Shown here piece by piece: positions 2,937 to 62,483 of a stretch of DNA of 64,000 nucleotides. The stretch lies in NCBI GenBank assembly GCA_035708165.1, contig DASSSZ010000003.1:23954-87953 (forward strand). Direction: 5' to 3'. Position 1 is the first letter of the stretch; each line of letters begins with the position of its first letter. Source of the stretch: Minisyncoccota bacterium. Lineage in GTDB: Bacteria; Patescibacteriota; Minisyncoccia; Phycocordibacterales; UBA2100. The notes beneath the pieces were generated by a model. It ran no database searches. It was not told where the DNA came from and saw nothing but the letters and a program-made list of their open reading frames with translations. A program made the position numbers and the translations under genes.

Positions 2937-3275
2937 ATGTTCAGGACCAAGGCACAGCAGCGCGCGCACTGCGGCACCTGCCCGGTGGCGCGGGTCGCCG
3001 ACCTGGTCGGCGATTCGTGGTCCATCCTGATCCTGCGCGACCTTCTCGAAGGGCCGCGGCGCTTCGGGGATCTCGAGGAGTCGCTCCACGGGATCAGTTC
3101 CCGCACGCTCGCGAAGAAGCTGAAGTCGCTCGAGGAGCACAAGATGATCACGCGCACCGAGCACCGGGAGAAGCCGCCGCGCGTGGAGTACGAGCTCACG
3201 GACGCGGGGCACGCCTTCCATTCGATCATCGACGCGATGCGCGCGTTCGGGAGCCAGTACCTGCCGGCCGCTTAG
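2937..3275 (+). CDS. HxlR-family transcriptional regulator
   Basis: ATG at 2937 preceded by GGAGG. CGTCPVARVADLVGDSWSILILRDLLEGPRRFGDLEESLHGISSRTLAKKLKSLEE winged-helix HxlR signature. Rest of ORF 2727..3275 is upstream read-through. Confidence 0.85.
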   Translation: MFRTKAQQRAHCGTCPVARVADLVGDSWSILILRDLLEGPRRFGDLEESLHGISSRTLAKKLKSLEEHKMITRTEHREKPPRVEYELTDAGHAFHSIIDAMRAFGSQYLPAA

Positions 3276-55339: not shown

Positions 55340-55590
55340 ACTACTAGATGAGTGGGGTGAGATAATTAACGCTATTCCCGATGATACCACCATTAAGGGA
55401 GCTGCACGGAGCGGCAGCGAAGCCCTGTGGATACGGGGGGTGGCCGGCGCGGCTCTGTCCGAGTCCGAAGTTTCTATCTGCGGGCTACTCGGGATTCAGA
55501 CTTTGCAGGTCAAGCCCTGTAAGGGTATTTTGGCACCTTCTCGCGGAGTTATTTGAGGTGTTCAGGTCGCAAGCATAAAATCAGTCCATC

Positions 55591-56268
55591 ATGAGTATCA
55601 TACGTTTTGCAGTGGGAACCCGAGATGATCTACGCTCTTCCGTATGGCGCTTATGGGCTAACAAGAACGACTTATATCTAGCAGCCCGTTCGCATGCAAT
55701 GATTTCAAAATTTAGTTTTCACGAGTCTGGGAAGTATCGATTCGCAGTGAATAGCGCGGTTGAACGAGAAAACGATGCGAGTGATCGGGCGTTGTATAAA
55801 TGGACACGCCCATCCGAATTCGCCCCCGGTTGGACTCGTTGTTTCGGAATACTCGTTCCACAAAGAGTTACTCGATCACCTTTCGGAATCAGCTTCGATG
55901 AGAATAAAGCAGTTGAGCTTGTTAGCCCCCCTGCCAAGGGTAAGAAGGTTATTTTCAACATCATCCTTTCCCACAAAGCGGCTAAGCCCGAGCATGTAAT
56001 CCGCGGCTCAGCTCACAAAATAAAGATTTTGGGGCGGATCGAGATGCTGCGAGAGATTGCATGGCTAGTCACTTTTGAGGATGATTTTGGTCCCACGGAG
56101 GAGGCAGTGATTCAGGACCATTTCGACAAGCTAAAAATCCATCTCAAACCAGGGAGCACTGGAGAAGGGATGCGGTACACCTTCCTTCATGCTATTGAAC
56201 AGGGCGAGACACCCTTTCTAATTGACATAGAGCTCGGCAGGGAAAATCTAGATATCTCCGCTGTCTAA
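55591..56268 (+). CDS. hypothetical protein (island orphan)
   Basis: 225-aa ORF with island codon usage. No recognised domain. Confidence 0.5.
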   Translation: MSIIRFAVGTRDDLRSSVWRLWANKNDLYLAARSHAMISKFSFHESGKYRFAVNSAVERENDASDRALYKWTRPSEFAPGWTRCFGILVPQRVTRSPFGISFDENKAVELVSPPAKGKKVIFNIILSHKAAKPEHVIRGSAHKIKILGRIEMLREIAWLVTFEDDFGPTEEAVIQDHFDKLKIHLKPGSTGEGMRYTFLHAIEQGETPFLIDIELGRENLDISAV

Positions 56269-56300
56269 GTGCCCGGGTCTGTCCGATCAAAAGTACTGAC

Positions 56301-56410: not shown

Positions 56411-56434
56411 CGGCTCCGCCGTTCGAATCCCTCC
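56411..56434 (+). repeat. inverted partial copy of tRNA-Ser T-loop plus acceptor 3' strand
   Basis: GTTCGAATCCCTCCCTCTCTCGCA versus tRNA-Ser GTTCGAATCCCTCCCTCTCCGCA (one inserted T). Lacks 5' T-stem, so not a functional tRNA. Confidence 0.55.
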
Positions 56435-56486
56435 CTCTCTCGCAACATGCAACAAACCCGAAGCTTCGCTTCGAGTTTGGCAGTTG

Positions 56487-56573
56487 CGGAGAGGGAGGGA
56501 TTCGAACCCTCGAGACCGTTACCAGCCTGCCGCATTTCGAGTGCGGTGCCTTCGACCACTCAGCCACCTCTCC
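56487..56573 (-). tRNA. tRNA-Ser (anticodon CGA), type II long variable arm
   Basis: Reverse complement: acceptor GGAGAGG/CCTCTCC, anticodon arm CCGCA-CTCGAAA-TGCGG, long variable arm, T-arm GAGGG-TTCGAAT-CCCTC. Confidence 0.8.
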
Positions 56574-56672
56574 GTGGTATGTCGCCATCGGGGTCGAATC
56601 CGACGTGCCTCGTACGATACCATATTTATAAAAGTTTATAAAAGCCAGAAAATACGCTACTATTCGCACGGC

Positions 56673-56744
56673 GGCCCTATCGTCTAATGGTTAGGACAGC
56701 GCCCTTTCACGGCGTAAATCCGGGTTCGATTCCCGGTAGGGTCA
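56673..56744 (+). tRNA. tRNA-Glu (anticodon TTC)
   Basis: Acceptor GGCCCTA/TAGGGTC (one G-U), anticodon arm GCGCC-CTTTCAC-GGCGT, T-arm CCGGG-TTCGATT-CCCGG. Confidence 0.7.
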
Positions 56745-58129
56745 CAAGAAGCAACAAAACGGCTTTGCAGAGCTGCAAATCCTTTTTTGCACTTATAATC
56801 CAACGTATTTTCTGTCAGGGTGAGTTCGGAAAAAATCACACGAAGTATTTTGTCTTTCTCATGCGGTTCGGCCTCTGAGTAAACAACTGCGGCGTTTTTT
56901 AACAGTTCGGAAAGCAAAATTACATCTTTGATGGTTTCGCGCATCGCCACGTCCGAGGCGTTTTCATTATCTTTGAGTTGATTGAGTTCGTTTGTGAGCC
57001 GAGCTTCTTCTGCGACGTATCCTTCGGGTGTGTACACGCCAGTTTTCAGAAGCACGAGACGATTGCCGTTGAGATACGCCAGCTCCTCGCGGATTTGCTT
57101 CTTCTTGCGCTCGGCCGCATCGAGCTGACTCATACGCTTTGCCTCCAACAATGCAATGTCGGTATTCGCCCGCGCGTCAATTTCCGCAAGCTCCTCCTCG
57201 GTAAACGAAAGCTTGGTAATCAATTCCTCGGTCTTCGCTGTCAGGTAGTCGAAGTTGAAGCTCTTGAGCGAGTTGGTGCACTCGCGGGAGCAACGAGCGC
57301 CGTAGTACAAAATCCCTTTCTTTACATATGGAGTGTAGACGCGACCACAAACGGCACAGAAAGCGAATCCTCGCAGCGGATGCTCTAGCACCTCGATGTA
57401 GTGAACACTCTTGTTGCGCTTCGCAAGCCGCTCCTGCACACGATTGAAAAGCTCCTCGGGAATAATTGCCTCGTGGCTGGTGCTCGGTATCCACTCACGA
57501 TTCTCATCGAGTACCTTGCCTGTGTAATAGCGGTTCGTCAGGATTTTGTGGATGGTGTTGTACGTCGGTAGGCGGCTTATCGCTTCAATATCAACTCGTA
57601 CATCGTCTTCCTCCTCAAGCAACATCTCCTCTTTTGTTCGACGACGGCGCATCGGTGGCATAGTAAATCCCTGCTCGATAGCCCATCGCGCAAGGTCGTG
57701 CAGGCTCCATTCGCCAGTATCGGCAAGCTTCGCAAGCTGCAAAATAATAGAAGCGCGAACAGGGTCTTTAGGCTTCCAGTCCATATTGCCCTCGTTGAGG
57801 TAGCCAACAGGCGCTTTGTTAGTGGAGAGTCCGCGCGAACGGGCGTTTTGAATGGTAAGGGTGACTTTCTCGCGGGTCACGCGAGAGTGGTGCTCCGAGA
57901 ACATACCGTCTATGTCCATATGCAGTTCGCCAGAGCTGGTCTTGTCGTACTGTGCGAACGCGAAGCGGATATCCGCTCCCGACTTCATTAGTTTACGCAG
58001 AATAGTATCGTCGCCCTTGTTGCGGCTCGCTCTATCCCAGCAGAGAAATATCGCGCCCCTGAAGTAGCCCTTGCTTACAAACTCCGCGAGGCGATAAAAC
58101 TTTGGGCGCTCGACTCGGTACTGCACCAT
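56684..58129 (-). CDS. large serine recombinase, 5'-truncated (catalytic Ser-containing N-terminus absent)
   Basis: Matches distal resolvase catalytic domain (LCWDRASRNKGD, MFSEHHSRVTREKV, PVGYL), recombinase domain, zinc-ribbon (CAVCGRVY...CSRECT), coiled-coil. About 60 N-terminal aa including YxRVSTxxQ not encoded upstream in any frame. 3' end runs antisense through tRNA-Glu. Confidence 0.75.
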   Translation of the reverse strand: MVQYRVERPKFYRLAEFVSKGYFRGAIFLCWDRASRNKGDDTILRKLMKSGADIRFAFAQYDKTSSGELHMDIDGMFSEHHSRVTREKVTLTIQNARSRGLSTNKAPVGYLNEGNMDWKPKDPVRASIILQLAKLADTGEWSLHDLARWAIEQGFTMPPMRRRRTKEEMLLEEEDDVRVDIEAISRLPTYNTIHKILTNRYYTGKVLDENREWIPSTSHEAIIPEELFNRVQERLAKRNKSVHYIEVLEHPLRGFAFCAVCGRVYTPYVKKGILYYGARCSRECTNSLKSFNFDYLTAKTEELITKLSFTEEELAEIDARANTDIALLEAKRMSQLDAAERKKKQIREELAYLNGNRLVLLKTGVYTPEGYVAEEARLTNELNQLKDNENASDVAMRETIKDVILLSELLKNAAVVYSEAEPHEKDKILRVIFSELTLTENTLDYKCKKGFAALQSRFVASCDPTGNRTRIYAVKGRCPNH

Positions 58130-58197
58130 ACCTTCCTCGAAAGTGAGGGCAGTATCGGGTTATTTCAATTGTCCGCTCGGGGCTGTAAAGTTGAGCG

Positions 58198-59121
58198 ATG
58201 GCACGCCCGCTCGGTAGCATTTCCACAAACATCGAACCAAAGAGACTCAAGCGGCTTCTGGCTCTTGAAAAAGAAAGGCGCGGTGTAGCAGAGGATAAGC
58301 TAGTATTCGTGGGCATAGCGAATCTCGCCAGCTATTACTGGTGCGCCATGCACTCGGTTCTAAAAAGTAGAGCGGATGAGGCGATGTTTTTCGGCGCGTA
58401 TCTCGCAGACCGCATCCGCTACAGCAAGGAGCTTGGCCTGATTCGGTCGCTGCCAAGGACGGACGCGGAGCTGCTACGTGTCGGCGAAGAAATAACTTTC
58501 GAGGATGTTGAGAAGTTGCTCGCAAAAAGGCCTGTCGCGTCTAGCGACGTCAGTCTGGACGCGTACAGTTTCGGTGACAGCAACGGAGGGATGCAGATGG
58601 TGATAAATCCGAACGTCTCTGCCGAACGCAGAAAGTCGCTGGAGAGCGATGCGCGACGCAATAAATTGAAGATTACCGACCTGGAGAAAGTGCCCATCGT
58701 CCGCGGCAACATGATGCACTGGAATAATCCCGAGAAGTACCGCTCTATACGCTGGAACTTCCAAGCAGGTGTGTATGTCATCGTCGGCGTACCTGATGGC
58801 ATAACGGACGATAGCGTATATGAGTACAAAACAACCAAAAGCGACTTCCTCGCGGGATTCGTGAAGCCAGTCGCTTTCGCACAAGCAGACCTGTACGGGC
58901 ACTTCTTCAGACGGTCAAAAAAACGTGTGCAGATACAGGTCATCGAAACGAGCAAAACCCAAACGTGGGAAGAACCGATAGACGAGACGCGGGTAGGAAC
59001 GTTGGTACACGACTTTGCACAGGTGGATGCAGGAAAGCTTTTCCCGCACCCTCCGAAAAGCTGGAAATGCGCCAGGTGCGAGATATGCGGCTTCGGAAAA
59101 CTCTGTCAAAAACAACAATGA
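58198..59121 (+). CDS. Cas4-like PD-(D/E)XK nuclease with 4Fe-4S Cys cluster (DUF83/RecB-nuclease family)
   Basis: N-terminal Cys (YYWCAMH), motif II D (VPDGITDD), motif III EYK (VYEYKTTK), QxxxY (QADLYGHFF), C-terminal CARCEICGFGKLC. Confidence 0.65.
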   Translation: MARPLGSISTNIEPKRLKRLLALEKERRGVAEDKLVFVGIANLASYYWCAMHSVLKSRADEAMFFGAYLADRIRYSKELGLIRSLPRTDAELLRVGEEITFEDVEKLLAKRPVASSDVSLDAYSFGDSNGGMQMVINPNVSAERRKSLESDARRNKLKITDLEKVPIVRGNMMHWNNPEKYRSIRWNFQAGVYVIVGVPDGITDDSVYEYKTTKSDFLAGFVKPVAFAQADLYGHFFRRSKKRVQIQVIETSKTQTWEEPIDETRVGTLVHDFAQVDAGKLFPHPPKSWKCARCEICGFGKLCQKQQ

Positions 59122-59732
59122 GCAAGATAAAATCCCATCTCACCATCGGCAACAAGTTCCTCGGCTCGCTTCTGTACTTCAAGGATGCGAATGGGCGGGG
59201 TCATCTCAAACTGTCGTTCAAAAACAAAATTGCGGGCTTCAACAAGGGCACGGACGTGCCGACCACGTTGCCTGTGCCCGTACAGTCGCCCGACCCCGTA
59301 AGCTTGGATGTTTCCTACAAGTTTCCCGATAGCTTGCTGGAGGTGAAGAAAGTTGCGGGCGGCAAAACCGAGCGCGAGTTCTATAACGTGCCACTACCTG
59401 TCTCCAATCTTTTATTTATGATTCGCATCAAGGACTGGCATCTCCTCGACGATGACCAACCTGCGCCAAATCCGCTGGTGCTCGCGCCTCCCGATGGGAG
59501 CAAGAGCGTCGCGGTCATCTTTTCGTTTCTCGGTGCAAATGGGCTGCCATTCGTACCTACTGGATACGTCTGCCCGCAAGGGATGGGTACGATATCTGTC
59601 CCCGAAAGTCCGCTCAATACTTTTTGCATCGGCATTGCGGCTGACCCCTCGAACCAGAGCGCCAACGGCTTCCAAGTGCAAATCCCGTTTCCTAAAGCAG
59701 AACAAGACGGGTTTTTAGGTTTGAAGCAATAA
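59118..59732 (+). CDS. hypothetical protein, translationally coupled to Cas4-like gene
   Basis: ATG 59118 overlaps the upstream stop (ATGA). 204 aa. No domain recognised. Confidence 0.55.
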   Translation: MSKIKSHLTIGNKFLGSLLYFKDANGRGHLKLSFKNKIAGFNKGTDVPTTLPVPVQSPDPVSLDVSYKFPDSLLEVKKVAGGKTEREFYNVPLPVSNLLFMIRIKDWHLLDDDQPAPNPLVLAPPDGSKSVAVIFSFLGANGLPFVPTGYVCPQGMGTISVPESPLNTFCIGIAADPSNQSANGFQVQIPFPKAEQDGFLGLKQ

Positions 59733-59750
59733 AGAATCTATAATAATTAT

Positions 59751-60209
59751 ATGGACGCATTTTTCATATTCTCGGCTCAATACTTCTTTGTCTTGTCATT
59801 GATTATTCTCGGTGCGTACTTCCTCACGCGAAAATGGCCTGCACAAAAACGGATGACGTTTTTTGCAGTGCCCGCAGGCCTGCTCGCCTATGTGCTCGGG
59901 CTGCTCGGCAATTACCTCTACTATGACCCGCGTCCCTTTGTTGCAGGACACTTCATGCCGCTCATCGCACACGCGGCCGATAACGGGTTCCCCTCCGACC
60001 ATACCTTGCTCGTTTCAACGCTCGCTGCGGTGGGCATGTACTGGAACAAATGGCTTGGAGTAATACTTTGGATTATTGCTGTTCTCGTCGCGTTTTCCCG
60101 CATATATGTCGGCCTGCATCATCCGATTGATGTCCTCGGAAGCATGGCGATTGCCCTAGTCGCGGTTTCTGCATGGCGTATAGCAATGAACTATGTTTGG
60201 AAAGCATAA
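59751..60209 (+). CDS. PAP2 family phosphatase
   Basis: Motifs KxxxxxxRP-like, PSDH, SRIYVGLHHPIDV. Confidence 0.8.
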   Translation: MDAFFIFSAQYFFVLSLIILGAYFLTRKWPAQKRMTFFAVPAGLLAYVLGLLGNYLYYDPRPFVAGHFMPLIAHAADNGFPSDHTLLVSTLAAVGMYWNKWLGVILWIIAVLVAFSRIYVGLHHPIDVLGSMAIALVAVSAWRIAMNYVWKA

Positions 60210-60864
60210 GTTTTTGAAGATTGCTTCCCTCGTTGCCGTCCTTCTTGCTTTGGGTGTAATCACTTTTTTTATACTGCTTCGGCCAGGCCCGCTTTTCTCT
60301 ACACTTCCTGCTACCACAACCGCCTCTTTCGGGCATACTGGCGACCCTATCAACATCGCCGTCGTGGGAGACAAGGGTACCATCGTGTCCGCGTTTCTCG
60401 CCGCCCATTGGCTCGTACCAGACCCGATTACTGCCTCAAGCACCGTGCGGATTGCAGAAACGAGCATCGCCAATTCCGCATACCCAACCGCTCCAGTAAG
60501 CAGCCTGTATCTATTCGGTAGAGCGCAGGATTTGGCATTTGAACTGCCCACCGACTCTGTACGACAGCGACACCACGTGCGGCTATGGCAAACTACAATA
60601 ACAATCTCTGGTAAGCCACTCTGGGTAGGTTCGGCAACGTACGATTCGGACATTGAGTTGAGCGGAACAACCGCCTTGCCGACACATCATATTTCTCCGA
60701 ACGTAGACAGTGAGCGCGACTTTGTGGCGCAATCATTTATGGACGCTGGACTCATGCAGAGCGAGACATCCAACCGCATCAGTTATCCGACGCTCTGGGG
60801 ATTCAATGGCGGCGGCGATTGGTATTTTGATGATGGACTCGTGCGTATGCTCGTATTGCGATAA
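60193..60864 (+). CDS. LssY C-terminal domain-like protein (usually fused to PAP2)
   Basis: N-terminal TM, INIAVVGDKGTIVSAFLAAHWLVPDP ... HHVRLWQT ... similar to LssY_C. Overlaps the PAP2 ORF by 17 nt in another frame. Confidence 0.55.
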   Translation: MFGKHKFLKIASLVAVLLALGVITFFILLRPGPLFSTLPATTTASFGHTGDPINIAVVGDKGTIVSAFLAAHWLVPDPITASSTVRIAETSIANSAYPTAPVSSLYLFGRAQDLAFELPTDSVRQRHHVRLWQTTITISGKPLWVGSATYDSDIELSGTTALPTHHISPNVDSERDFVAQSFMDAGLMQSETSNRISYPTLWGFNGGGDWYFDDGLVRMLVLR

Positions 60865-60873
60865 TGTGAAGTT

Positions 60874-61377
60874 ATGACCCTTGCGTCTCTCAAAAACTAC
60901 CTGCTTGAAGAAAAACACATGCACCTGTTCTTCGTGGTGAGTCTCTGGGCGAAGGGTCTATTCGCCCTGTCGGAAATAATCGGAGGCATCGCCGCGTTCT
61001 TCATAACCAAGCAGTTCCTCGTAGACATCGCACTATGGATTACCAAGCACGAGTTCGCTGAAGACCCGCACGATGTTATTGCCAACTATTTCCTACATTC
61101 GGTACAGAATCTATCAATCGGTGCACAGGACTTTGCGGCCATATATCTGCTTGGGCACGGCGTCATCAAGCTCTGGCTCATCATTGGACTTCTGCGGGAG
61201 CGGCTCTGGTACTATCCAACAGCCCTCGTCGTATTCGGACTTTTCATTGTCTACCAGCTTTACCGATATACATTCACTCACTCTATCTGGCTTTTGCTCA
61301 TCACGGTCATAGACCTCATTGTCATCGGCCTCACCTGGCACGAGTGGGGATACTTACGAAAGCACAGAATCCAATAG
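60874..61377 (+). CDS. hypothetical membrane protein (DUF2127-like)
   Basis: 167 aa, four TM. Last gene before the GC rise. Confidence 0.45.
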   Translation: MTLASLKNYLLEEKHMHLFFVVSLWAKGLFALSEIIGGIAAFFITKQFLVDIALWITKHEFAEDPHDVIANYFLHSVQNLSIGAQDFAAIYLLGHGVIKLWLIIGLLRERLWYYPTALVVFGLFIVYQLYRYTFTHSIWLLLITVIDLIVIGLTWHEWGYLRKHRIQ

Positions 61378-61500
61378 CTAGACGACCACCAGCTCTCGCA
61401 ACTCTTGGATGCTCAAGCCGATGGCGGCTCGGTATTGTCCGAGTTCGGAAAGCCACGTAAACTGGTCACAAACGGCTCGCTGTGCGTCCGCGCTGGGCAG

Positions 61501-62103
61501 CTAGGCCCCGACCGTTCCAGTCTGCACGCCGCCTGCACGCGTGTAGCTTGCGAAATAGACGCCGTTGGCAGCGACGTGATGCTCGCCGAGCGTGAAGGCT
61601 GCGGGGAGCGTGCCTTCCGCGAAAAGTCGCTTGCCGGTGCCGAGCGTGATCGGGAAGGTCATGAGCCTCAGCTCGTCCACCCAATCATGCTTGAAGAGCG
61701 TCTGCGCCAGATTGCCGCTGCCGATGCTGATGAGGTCGCCGCCATCGGATTCCTTCAGCTTCCGGATGTCGTCATCGCCTTTCAGGAACACCGAATGCTG
61801 CCAGTCAGATTCGGCAAGGGTCGTGCTCGCGCAGTATTTCGTGACGTCATTGATGCTCGGCTACGGATCCGCATGGCTCGACCAGAAAGCCGCGAAGATC
61901 TCGAACGTCTTCCTGCCGAGGAGGATGTCCGCAGGCTGCATCCACTTCTGCATCAGCGCATCGGCTTCCCGATCAGCGTCCGCGAAATACGGCGCGGTCC
62001 ATCTGCCGTATGCAAAGCCGCTCGATGCGTCTTCGTCCGGTCTGCCCGGCGCCTGCACGACGCCGTCGAGGGTGATGAACTCCTGGACGATCAGCCTTCT
62101 CAT
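61501..62103 (-). pseudogene. dihydrofolate reductase family protein (RibD_C-like), frameshifted
   Basis: N-terminal half (MRRLIVQEFITLDGVVQAPG ... ADILLGRKTFEIFAAFW) in ORF 61861..62103. C-terminal half (GDDDIRKLKESDGGDLISIGSGNLAQTLFKHDWVDELRLMTFPITLGTGKRLF) in ORF 61501..61791, different frame. Confidence 0.6.
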
Positions 62104-62183: not shown

Positions 62184-62483
62184 TCATGAACGCTTGCGCG
62201 CAAGGATCCCGCGCACGGAGCGGCTGATCGGCTTATCGGTGCGATGAATGCAGCCGATCCAGCAGCATGGCCGGCGCATGCCATCCTTGAGCTCGGAGAC
62301 GACGCGCCGCACATGATCCTTCCTGGTCTCGGCTTTCTTCACTGAGATCGTCCAGCAGATCCACTCATTGCGGGAAAGCGGCGTGAGGTCGTTCCAGAGG
62401 TCGCGCGCCGCGGCGTCCTTCATGAGCGCCGCGCGGAGGTCGGCGGGAATCGCATGCACGACACCGCTTCCGAGTGCTGCCAT
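62184..62483 (-). CDS. YdeI/OmpD-associated family protein
   Basis: DLRAALMKDAAARDLWNDLTPLSRNEWICWTISVKKAETRKDHVRRVVSEL signature. Confidence 0.65.
   Translation of the reverse strand: MAALGSGVVHAIPADLRAALMKDAAARDLWNDLTPLSRNEWICWTISVKKAETRKDHVRRVVSELKDGMRRPCCWIGCIHRTDKPISRSVRGILARKRS

Follow-up and report, generated by a model that had tools for sequence, protein, structure and literature searches.

A probable decayed integrative element at a tRNA-Glu gene of a Candidatus Paceibacterota genome, and its family of large serine recombinases

We analysed a stretch of 64,000 nucleotides (the window) of contig DASSSZ010000003.1, which is part of a metagenome-assembled genome (MAG) of Candidatus Paceibacterota, and focused on a minus-strand open reading frame (ORF) that encodes the remnant of a large serine recombinase (LSR). 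Positions 56740-61471 of the window very probably represent a small, decayed integrative element of Patescibacteria that was integrated by the LSR at tRNA-Glu(UUC) and later suffered an internal deletion. The truncation itself is ordinary decay of a tRNA island. What is unusual lies at the level of the family, where integration appears to swap the C-terminal tail of the recombinase.

The recombinase remnant

The ORF is fully open over 481 codons and specifies a product of 481 aa (coordinates of all features are given in Table 1). A search of 5.8 billion proteins yielded 841 relatives, the closest of which (P0001, 571 aa, 88% identity) is encoded on contig L001. The best 120 of these 841 relatives measured 448-605 aa, nearly all of them 558-605 aa, and full-length relatives 563-605 aa. 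For the genomic context one genome per species was scanned, which gave 80 loci, or 81 with L001 included.

Large serine integrases have a fixed domain order: a resolvase catalytic domain, a long E helix, a recombinase domain and a zinc ribbon with an inserted coiled coil. A first-pass annotation of the window, made from the letters alone, had placed the ORF product on this order from the middle of the catalytic domain onwards, and the profile searches agreed. Resolvase (PF00239) matched residues 7-100 at profile positions 48-143 of 145, Recombinase (PF07508) was found with E = 7e-10 (39.5 bits, cut-off 21.1), and the zinc ribbon PF13408 gave a weak match of 15.6 bits, below its cut-off of 25.3. 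The four zinc-ribbon cysteines (C258, C261, C280 and C284) are kept and are invariant in the alignment, as is the D-R-x-x-R cluster (W-D-R-A-S-R-N at residues 31-37). The long E helix (residues 163-188 in a model of P0001) is retained as well, and so, it appears, is the coiled coil inserted in the zinc ribbon (a helical hairpin at 401-509 in the same model). The profile of the LSR family aligned to the zinc ribbon and C-terminal domain of the A118 integrase, and the top named match in NCBIfam was XisF (E = 1e-13, far under its cut-off).

In the alignment the relatives reach about 90 residues beyond the first Met of the window protein, and this N-terminal extension carries Y-x-R-[KR]-S-T-D-D…Q…S…Q, the nucleophile motif of serine recombinases. 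The part Y-x-R-[KR]-S-T-D was recovered with a regular expression in 78 of the 80 related genome loci, and R27 and S29 were invariant in an alignment of 47 sequences. The window ORF does not contain the R-x-S motif, and on neither strand of the window did tblastn with seven N-terminal segments give a match beyond nine residual codons, which bears out the earlier statement that the segment with the catalytic serine is missing. It is barely conceivable that another locus, be it part of a split gene, an inverted segment or a gene for a separate subunit, supplies the catalytic N-terminus in trans: the tblastn search inspected 64 kb of the genome, and a split arrangement at this position was seen in none of the relatives' 81 loci.

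The extent of the loss could be read from the DNA. The blastn match to the L001 gene covers window positions 56655-58156 with 79.7% identity and ends at 58156, corresponding to codon 82 of the L001 gene, and the tblastn homology continues for nine codons 5' of the ATG. The first-pass annotation had put the loss at about 60 residues; it amounts to recombinase codons 1-81, or to 90 residues when counted before the first usable Met. Upstream of these nine codons there is an in-frame TAA, and local alignment scores upstream of 58156 were no better than those of shuffled sequence, in line with the earlier observation of stop codons and of no resolvase-like sequence in this region. About 35 nt of extra similarity that MAFFT placed upstream of the breakpoint proved to be at chance level in a shuffle test and was discarded.

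It had also been proposed to quantify the missing span by alignment to Pfam models, and this check turned out not to discriminate. Pfam Resolvase aligned the full-length P0001 and P0003 only from profile position 42 or 46 (to 143), so that the start of the match cannot reveal a truncation, and the first 90 residues of P0001 or P0003 alone had no Pfam match. In the LSR family these 90 residues contain insertions and are too divergent for Pfam; automated annotation could consequently take intact members of the family for truncated ones, or the reverse. As Pfam does not discriminate, the evidence for the truncation comes from the family alignment, the structural model and the fold matches. The AlphaFold2 model of P0001 (mean predicted local distance difference test score 78.7) has strand beta1 at residues 22-29, with S29 as its last residue, helix A at 40-53 and strand beta2 at 71-76, and the Met of the window protein corresponds to residue 91, within a family-specific hairpin that is inserted before helix B. 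Foldseek matched this model to the full-length serine integrases 9y66, 9dxd, Bxb1 (9iu2) and PhiC31 (9tep) with E = 1e-16 to 1e-12 over about 600 columns, and also to isolated catalytic domains (e.g. of TP901-1).

The window protein is thus without the nucleophile and without beta1, helix A and beta2, which are core parts of the catalytic fold, and is predicted to be unable to cut DNA. Because R27, S29 and the first three secondary structure elements of the catalytic domain are missing, the element should not be able to excise by itself. On the basis of the sequence comparisons we consider the window gene to be a truncated derivative of the LSR family and not a functional member.

The integrated element and its junctions

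The element is 4,724 bp long and lies at the 3' end of tRNA-Glu(UUC). The tRNA gene remains intact and overlaps, 3' end to 3' end, the antisense recombinase ORF, whose last 18 codons are antisense of the tRNA. The same 8-bp core, GGTCACAA, is present at both junctions and also at the junctions of L001 and L060; the crossover would lie within this core. The GC content of the element is 0.517 (0.514 in the recombinase part and 0.517 in the cargo) as compared to 0.653 and 0.626 in the host flanks, and the steps between them are sharp. With an intact tRNA, a foreign GC content and a recombinase abutting the tRNA, the element has the characteristics of a tRNA-gene genomic island. To the left of the element the tRNA order Glu-Ser-Val-Phe was found, which recurs in the related Patescibacteria loci L002, L003 and L021.

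At the far end of the element, on the strand of the recombinase, we found a detached C-terminal tail of the integrase, with a score of 32.6 bits for window positions 61378-61470 in a search with a hidden Markov model (HMM) of the tail. A stretch of 84 bp (61387-61470) is 93% identical to L001 positions 2583-2666, a non-coding-looking segment 7.4 kb upstream of the L001 recombinase. Over the first 25 codons the tails of the window and of L001 differ by four synonymous and no non-synonymous changes, which suggests, small as these numbers are, that the detached tail is still selected as coding sequence. The empty site is predicted to read …CCCGGTAGGGTCACAAACGGCTCGCTG… and the junction of the circular form …GTTGCTTCTTGTGACCAGTTTACGTGGCTTTCC…. 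No relatives were found in IMG/VR, so that this search lends no support to the element being a virus.

The breakpoint and the proposed history

The breakpoint lies at 58156/58157, where the cargo block of the element runs straight into codon 82 of the recombinase, 41 bp from the start of a Cas4-like gene on the opposite strand (58198, as first annotated and in agreement with the ORF list). It is not an artefact of the assembler used for the MAG: contig L082 of the Logan collection (run SRR25158513), produced with a different assembler, is 100% identical to window positions 57604-61447 over 3,844 bp and spans the breakpoint. That the junction is nevertheless a chimera of assembly or binning, and that the true genome has an intact recombinase, is highly improbable. 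The window does come from a MAG, and both ends of L082 (57604 and 61447) fall in conserved recombinase and tail sequence, a hint that the assembly graph branched at related elements present in the sample; yet the independent, unitig-based assembly crosses the junction without a mismatch, both sides of the breakpoint have the same atypical GC content, and the tail at the far end has the orientation expected for one element. NCBI proteins exist for four of the neighbouring cargo genes (HET8581267 and HET8581269-71) and for the ORF at 56684-58129 there is none, which we also count against a chimera.

The history that we consider very probable would have started when the LSR encoded on the element inserted it at the 3' end of tRNA-Glu(UUC) of the host. 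Integration would have left the recombinase ORF running into the antisense tRNA, at the hybrid attachment site attR, and would have moved the recombinase's own WLSEL tail to the far end (attL, 61378-61470). A later internal deletion between codon 82 and a point upstream of the Cas4-like gene would then have removed codons 1-81, and with them beta1 and its R-x-S nucleophile, helix A and beta2. It would also have taken whatever genes were upstream of the recombinase; nearly all relatives have there a partner gene of about 68 aa (g68), and the two closest relatives a 4.6-kb module of seven genes with a P-loop NTPase. A 445-aa gene (g445) is present in 28 of the 81 loci, and neither g68 nor g445 was found in the window. 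The outcome would be a 4.7-kb island with both junctions and five intact cargo genes and with no active recombinase of its own.

The first-pass annotation had named a deletion or an insertion as the cause of the truncation. A deletion fits, and an insertion was rejected, as the missing piece does not occur at any other place in the window: on the far side of the cargo there are the detached tail and host DNA, and not the 5' part of the gene. An inversion was discarded too, no inverted 5' part having been seen. The simplest account would be a deletion that ran from the divergent intergenic DNA into the recombinase gene, probably as a single event of some 0.5 to 5 kb. An ancestor like L001 would imply a loss of about 5 kb, and one like the small intact elements or like L008 a loss of possibly less than 1 kb.

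No decay is seen in the remnant. In comparison with L001 and L002 its ratio of non-synonymous to synonymous substitution rates (dN/dS) is 0.05, with no stops in 490 aligned codons and only four private changes at sites that are otherwise invariant. As the remnant is undecayed and the GC content of the element is unameliorated, either the deletion is recent or the truncated protein has been retained. In the latter case, which accepts the deletion and rejects a mere pseudogene, a catalytically dead protein would still bind att sites and dimerise, and could block excision, exclude relatives from the tRNA-Glu site or regulate neighbouring genes. We consider this improbable. The remnant still has the E helix, the recombinase domain, the four cysteines of a putative zinc ribbon, a probable coiled coil and the D-R-x-x-R cluster, and its open frame begins with a Met that belongs to the family's own sequence, with GAGGAAGG 1-9 nt upstream, all of which would suit a working protein, as would the low dN/dS and the few private changes. 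However, the low dN/dS stems largely from the time before the deletion and is no guide to its age, a crude scan detected no promoter-like site upstream on the minus strand, and none of the 81 loci showed another, independent truncation ending at the same point. Moreover, beta1, helix A and beta2 form the core of the catalytic sheet, and without them the catalytic domain probably does not fold.

Returning to the decayed element with an internal deletion, three points weigh against it or against parts of it. L082 possibly derives from the same reads as the MAG, and it excludes an error specific to the assembler and not a chimeric population of reads. Several intact relatives do without the g445 module (L036, L050, L051 and L060, 5.6-6.7 kb), so that less than 1 kb could have been lost. 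The undecayed state of the remnant fits a recent deletion and a retained protein equally well.

The first-pass annotation had further concluded that the island was frozen in place. The placing of both island ends and the loss of the nucleophile speak for this, and truncation of the integrase is the usual route to fixation of an island. The frozen state is nevertheless an interpretation: both junctions look intact, and the element could be excised in trans by an intact relative, none of which was found in the 64-kb window. Unless it is served in this way the element would be immobile, and its five cargo genes (encoding a Cas4-like nuclease, a hypothetical protein, PAP2, LssY_C and DUF2127) would effectively be fixed beside tRNA-Glu in the Paceibacterota chromosome. 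It offers a snapshot of how small-genome bacteria of the candidate phyla radiation (CPR) domesticate foreign DNA, which is unremarkable in itself.

A family with a probable attachment site in the recombinase gene

The relatives of the window recombinase fall apart according to their C-terminus. About one third end in …CDPTGWLSEL… (584-605 aa) and the others in …CDPTGNRTPIxxxKxRxPNR, which is antisense tRNA. The WLSEL tail was found on the recombinase in 19 of the 81 loci, and in 47 of them the recombinase ORF stops in an antisense tRNA, which was tRNA-Glu in 39 cases and tRNA-Ala, -Trp, -Val, -Leu or -Ser in the remaining ones. Nearly all tRNA-ending forms belong to Patescibacteria, and the WLSEL forms were seen mostly in MAGs of other phyla (Bacteroidota, Proteobacteria and Acidobacteriota). 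In about 20 of the tRNA-ending loci the tail HMM detected a detached tail on the recombinase strand, 5.6-11.4 kb upstream. The related elements are 5.6-11.4 kb in size and have a full-length integrase with a small partner gene directly upstream. These comparisons give good support for an attachment site of the element (attP) that is situated within the last 28-30 codons or so of the recombinase gene, such that integration would exchange the WLSEL tail for antisense-tRNA residues; the conserved C-terminal WLSEL helix would be replaced by 17-18 such residues.

The exact attP predicted for the lineage of the window had no match in metagenome contigs. A degenerate pattern of the unsplit junction, searched in the metagenome contigs, retrieved two (L088 and L089). 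L088 is a contig of 11,834 bp with a terminal direct repeat of 127 bp, and thus a circle of 11.7 kb, without a tRNA. It carries homologs of core genes of L001 (g93, g445 and g68) and an unsplit recombinase of 584 aa that ends in …CDPIAWLSELLSNREEIRKCILKMEMVVNCV. The left arm of its attP matches the recombinase-proximal junction of the integrated element L021 at 34 of 39 positions and the distal junction at 18 of 38, and the right arm matches the distal junction at 32 of 45, the first 24 nt being identical, and the proximal junction at 14 of 38. As far as sequences can tell, this is the relation expected between an attP and its products attR and attL. The sites appear to be of the LSR type, i.e. 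short att sites that share a small core and give rise to hybrid attL and attR sites.

The layout of the elements is conserved in L088, L001 and L002, with successively the tail, cargo on the opposite strand, a module on the same strand, the gene of about 68 aa, which overlaps the start of the recombinase gene, and the recombinase gene itself. The cargo is variable; L001, for example, has an Mrr-type endonuclease and L088 a type III restriction-modification pair. The genes of the same-strand module could not be annotated, and searches with the core genes of the relatives in Pfam, PHROGs, NCBIfam and PDB sequences gave nothing useful; the module includes a 445-aa protein in which Walker A and B motifs were read by eye. 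The g68 gene (L001 9798-10004) was detectable in 60 of the 81 loci, in Patescibacteria and in other phyla, and is a candidate for a directionality factor or regulator.

Whether the tail swap has consequences for the enzyme is a matter of prediction. It is conceivable, and in our estimate rather unlikely, that the free and the tail-swapped forms differ in activity, for instance with the free form competent for integration and the integrated form restricted in excision or autoinhibited, and that the enzyme in this way senses the state of its element. If true, the enzyme would count as the serine-recombinase equivalent of the archaeal SSV-type integrases, with a new way of controlling directionality.

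Some loci contain more than one trace of the attachment site. Detached tails occur in a row at 3106, 3711, 4687 and 5881 in L036 and at 1040 and 1891 in L042, and in L003 (2493-2636) and L089 (8666-8752) the far end consists of the last 29 or so recombinase codons plus the tail, as a relic of an unsplit attP. Such serial tails and relics suggest repeated integration and decay at the same tRNA-Glu.

Another observation concerns the surroundings of WLSEL-tailed relatives. L083 and L084-L086 (contigs of P0026 and P0036) lie at the edge of defence islands or beside an ArdC-like gene, and the islands comprise type I and type IIG restriction-modification, GmrSD, SIR2 and HerA-like genes. It seems that the LSR family spreads defence cargo widely.

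Relation to known systems

The recombinases of this family appear to have the same domain order as the integrases of PhiC31, Bxb1, A118/LI and TP901-1 and as XisF of the Anabaena fdxN element. The matches of P0001 to full-length structures from cryo-electron microscopy and the junctions that share a short core without a long direct repeat also agree with serine integrases. Unlike these enzymes, the copy in the window is without nucleophile and first 81 codons, and the family as a whole targets the 3' end of a tRNA gene, usually tRNA-Glu, and has its attP within its own coding sequence. Targeting of tRNA 3' ends is a habit of tyrosine integrases.

A parallel in organisation is found in the 'suicidal' tyrosine integrases of the SSV family from archaeal viruses and plasmids, for which PMC7253208 describes an att site in the integrase ORF, a tRNA target and integration that splits the gene (split integrases of the SSV type are reviewed in PMC8371274). 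The LSR family shares these three features. It differs from the SSV family in having a serine recombinase instead of a tyrosine catalytic domain, and in the position of the split: the SSV-family genes are split mid-gene into two large parts, which inactivates them, whereas here the last 28 or so codons are exchanged and a nearly full-length ORF is left.

A further parallel is the integration-dependent immunity of mycobacteriophages, reportedly described by Broussard and colleagues in 2013, in which attP is said to lie inside the repressor gene of a phage with a tyrosine integrase and the consequence to have been demonstrated by experiment. In both systems integration alters the C-terminus of a protein encoded by the element since attP is located in its gene. 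In the mycobacteriophages this protein is the repressor, the integrase is of the tyrosine type and the effect was reportedly demonstrated; in the LSR family it is the recombinase itself, of the serine type, that is affected.

With regard to degraded prophages and islands that have a truncated integrase, the element in the window does not differ in any essential way: it has the foreign composition, the tRNA site, the kept cargo and an integrase disabled by deletion. A literature search, which was not exhaustive, did not yield a description of the LSR family or of a serine integrase that spans its own attP.

The family represents hundreds of small integrative elements (about 6-11 kb) in Patescibacteria, in which the genes besides the recombinase mostly match no known family and the cargo is often of a defence type (Mrr, type III restriction-modification and Cas4-like genes). 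To our knowledge the mobile elements of CPR bacteria are poorly described, and these bacteria are at present not genetically manipulable. Serine integrases that are specific for a tRNA and have defined pairs of attP and its chromosomal counterpart attB could serve as genetic tools for them, and the C-terminal swap provides a testable idea on directionality control in serine integrases.

Cargo genes and neighbourhood

Table 1. Features of the element and of the adjoining host DNA (positions in the window)
Feature	Position	Strand	Evidence
Host tRNA-Ser(CGA), neighbour of the target, host side of the junction	56486..56573	-	tRNA prediction; shared neighbourhood
Host tRNA-Glu(UUC), integration target	56673..56745	+	ARAGORN; Rfam tRNA, 65.5 bits
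Large serine recombinase (LSR) remnant	56684..58129	-	ORF list, Pfam, alignment; 88% identical to 571-aa P0001
8-bp core GGTCACAA, integrase-proximal copy, element/tRNA junction	56740..56747	.	sequence
Nine leftover integrase codons (DTALTFEEG), in-frame TAA at 58160-58162	58130..58156	-	tblastn, blastn end-point, translation
Cargo 1, solo Cas4-like PD-(D/E)xK nuclease (putative), C-terminal Cys cluster, 307 aa	58198..59121	+	sub-threshold Cas4 models
Cargo 2, hypothetical protein, 204 aa	59118..59732	+	gene call on Logan contig L082
Cargo 3, PAP2-family phosphatase	59751..60209	+	Pfam PF01569, E = 4.8e-14
Cargo 4, protein with LssY C-terminal domain	60193..60864	+	Pfam PF14067, E = 6.5e-52
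Cargo 5, DUF2127 membrane protein	60874..61377	+	Pfam PF09900, E = 2.1e-31
Detached integrase C-terminal tail CDQFTWLSELGQYRAAIGLSIQELRELVVV*, P' side of attP	61378..61470	-	blastn, translation, tail HMM
8-bp core GGTCACAA, distal copy, far junction; host DNA to the right	61464..61471	.	sequence; GC ~0.50 to 0.64

The first cargo gene had been labelled Cas4-like, and this label holds as a resemblance only. The Cas4 models remained below threshold, with E = 5e-4 (20 bits, cut-off 65) for TIGR00372 and E = 1e-5 for the Cas4 model of PADLOC, which covered the C-terminal half only; no Pfam match was found, and the 64-kb window contains no CRISPR array. From its sequence the product would be a Cas4-like solo nuclease and not a Cas4. 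Homologs with a length of about 300 aa occur widely among bacteria and archaea, and the closest one (79% identity) is located on a contig of 1.3 kb; the others have at most 53% identity and are scattered over bacteria and archaea.

The ORF at 58965-59732, which overlaps the second cargo gene, had no match in Pfam, PHROGs, NCBIfam or PADLOC. Homologs of the PAP2 and DUF2127 genes were found in L008, close to an intact recombinase gene and in the case of PAP2 just upstream of it; L008 is the sole relative with an intact core that shares these two genes.

Just outside the far junction, two minus-strand ORFs at 61501-61791 and 61861-62103 (96 and 80 aa) resemble halves of one gene that is possibly frameshifted. 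A small conserved gene (…LTPL[SA]RNEWICW…) lies less than 1 kb outside the far junction in the window (62184-62483, minus strand), in L014 (1683-1967) and in L036 (about 1521-1739). Synteny of the far flank was not used as evidence, as the orientation of this gene relative to the recombinase in L014 is opposite to that in the window.

On the other side, outside the element and past the 3' end of tRNA-Ser, a patch of low GC content (0.486 versus 0.65 in the host) extends from 55450 to 56300 and may be the remnant of another integration. It contains a plus-strand ORF of 225 aa (55591-56268) that had no match in Pfam, PHROGs, NCBIfam or PADLOC. Finally, a perfect inverted copy of 19 nt of the 3' end of tRNA-Ser is present 49 nt downstream of this gene (56421-56456 and 56489-56507), and could be the scar of an old integration or just a hairpin. 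Of the 17 nt that come next, 14 agree with the recombinase/tRNA-Glu junction (56742-56758).

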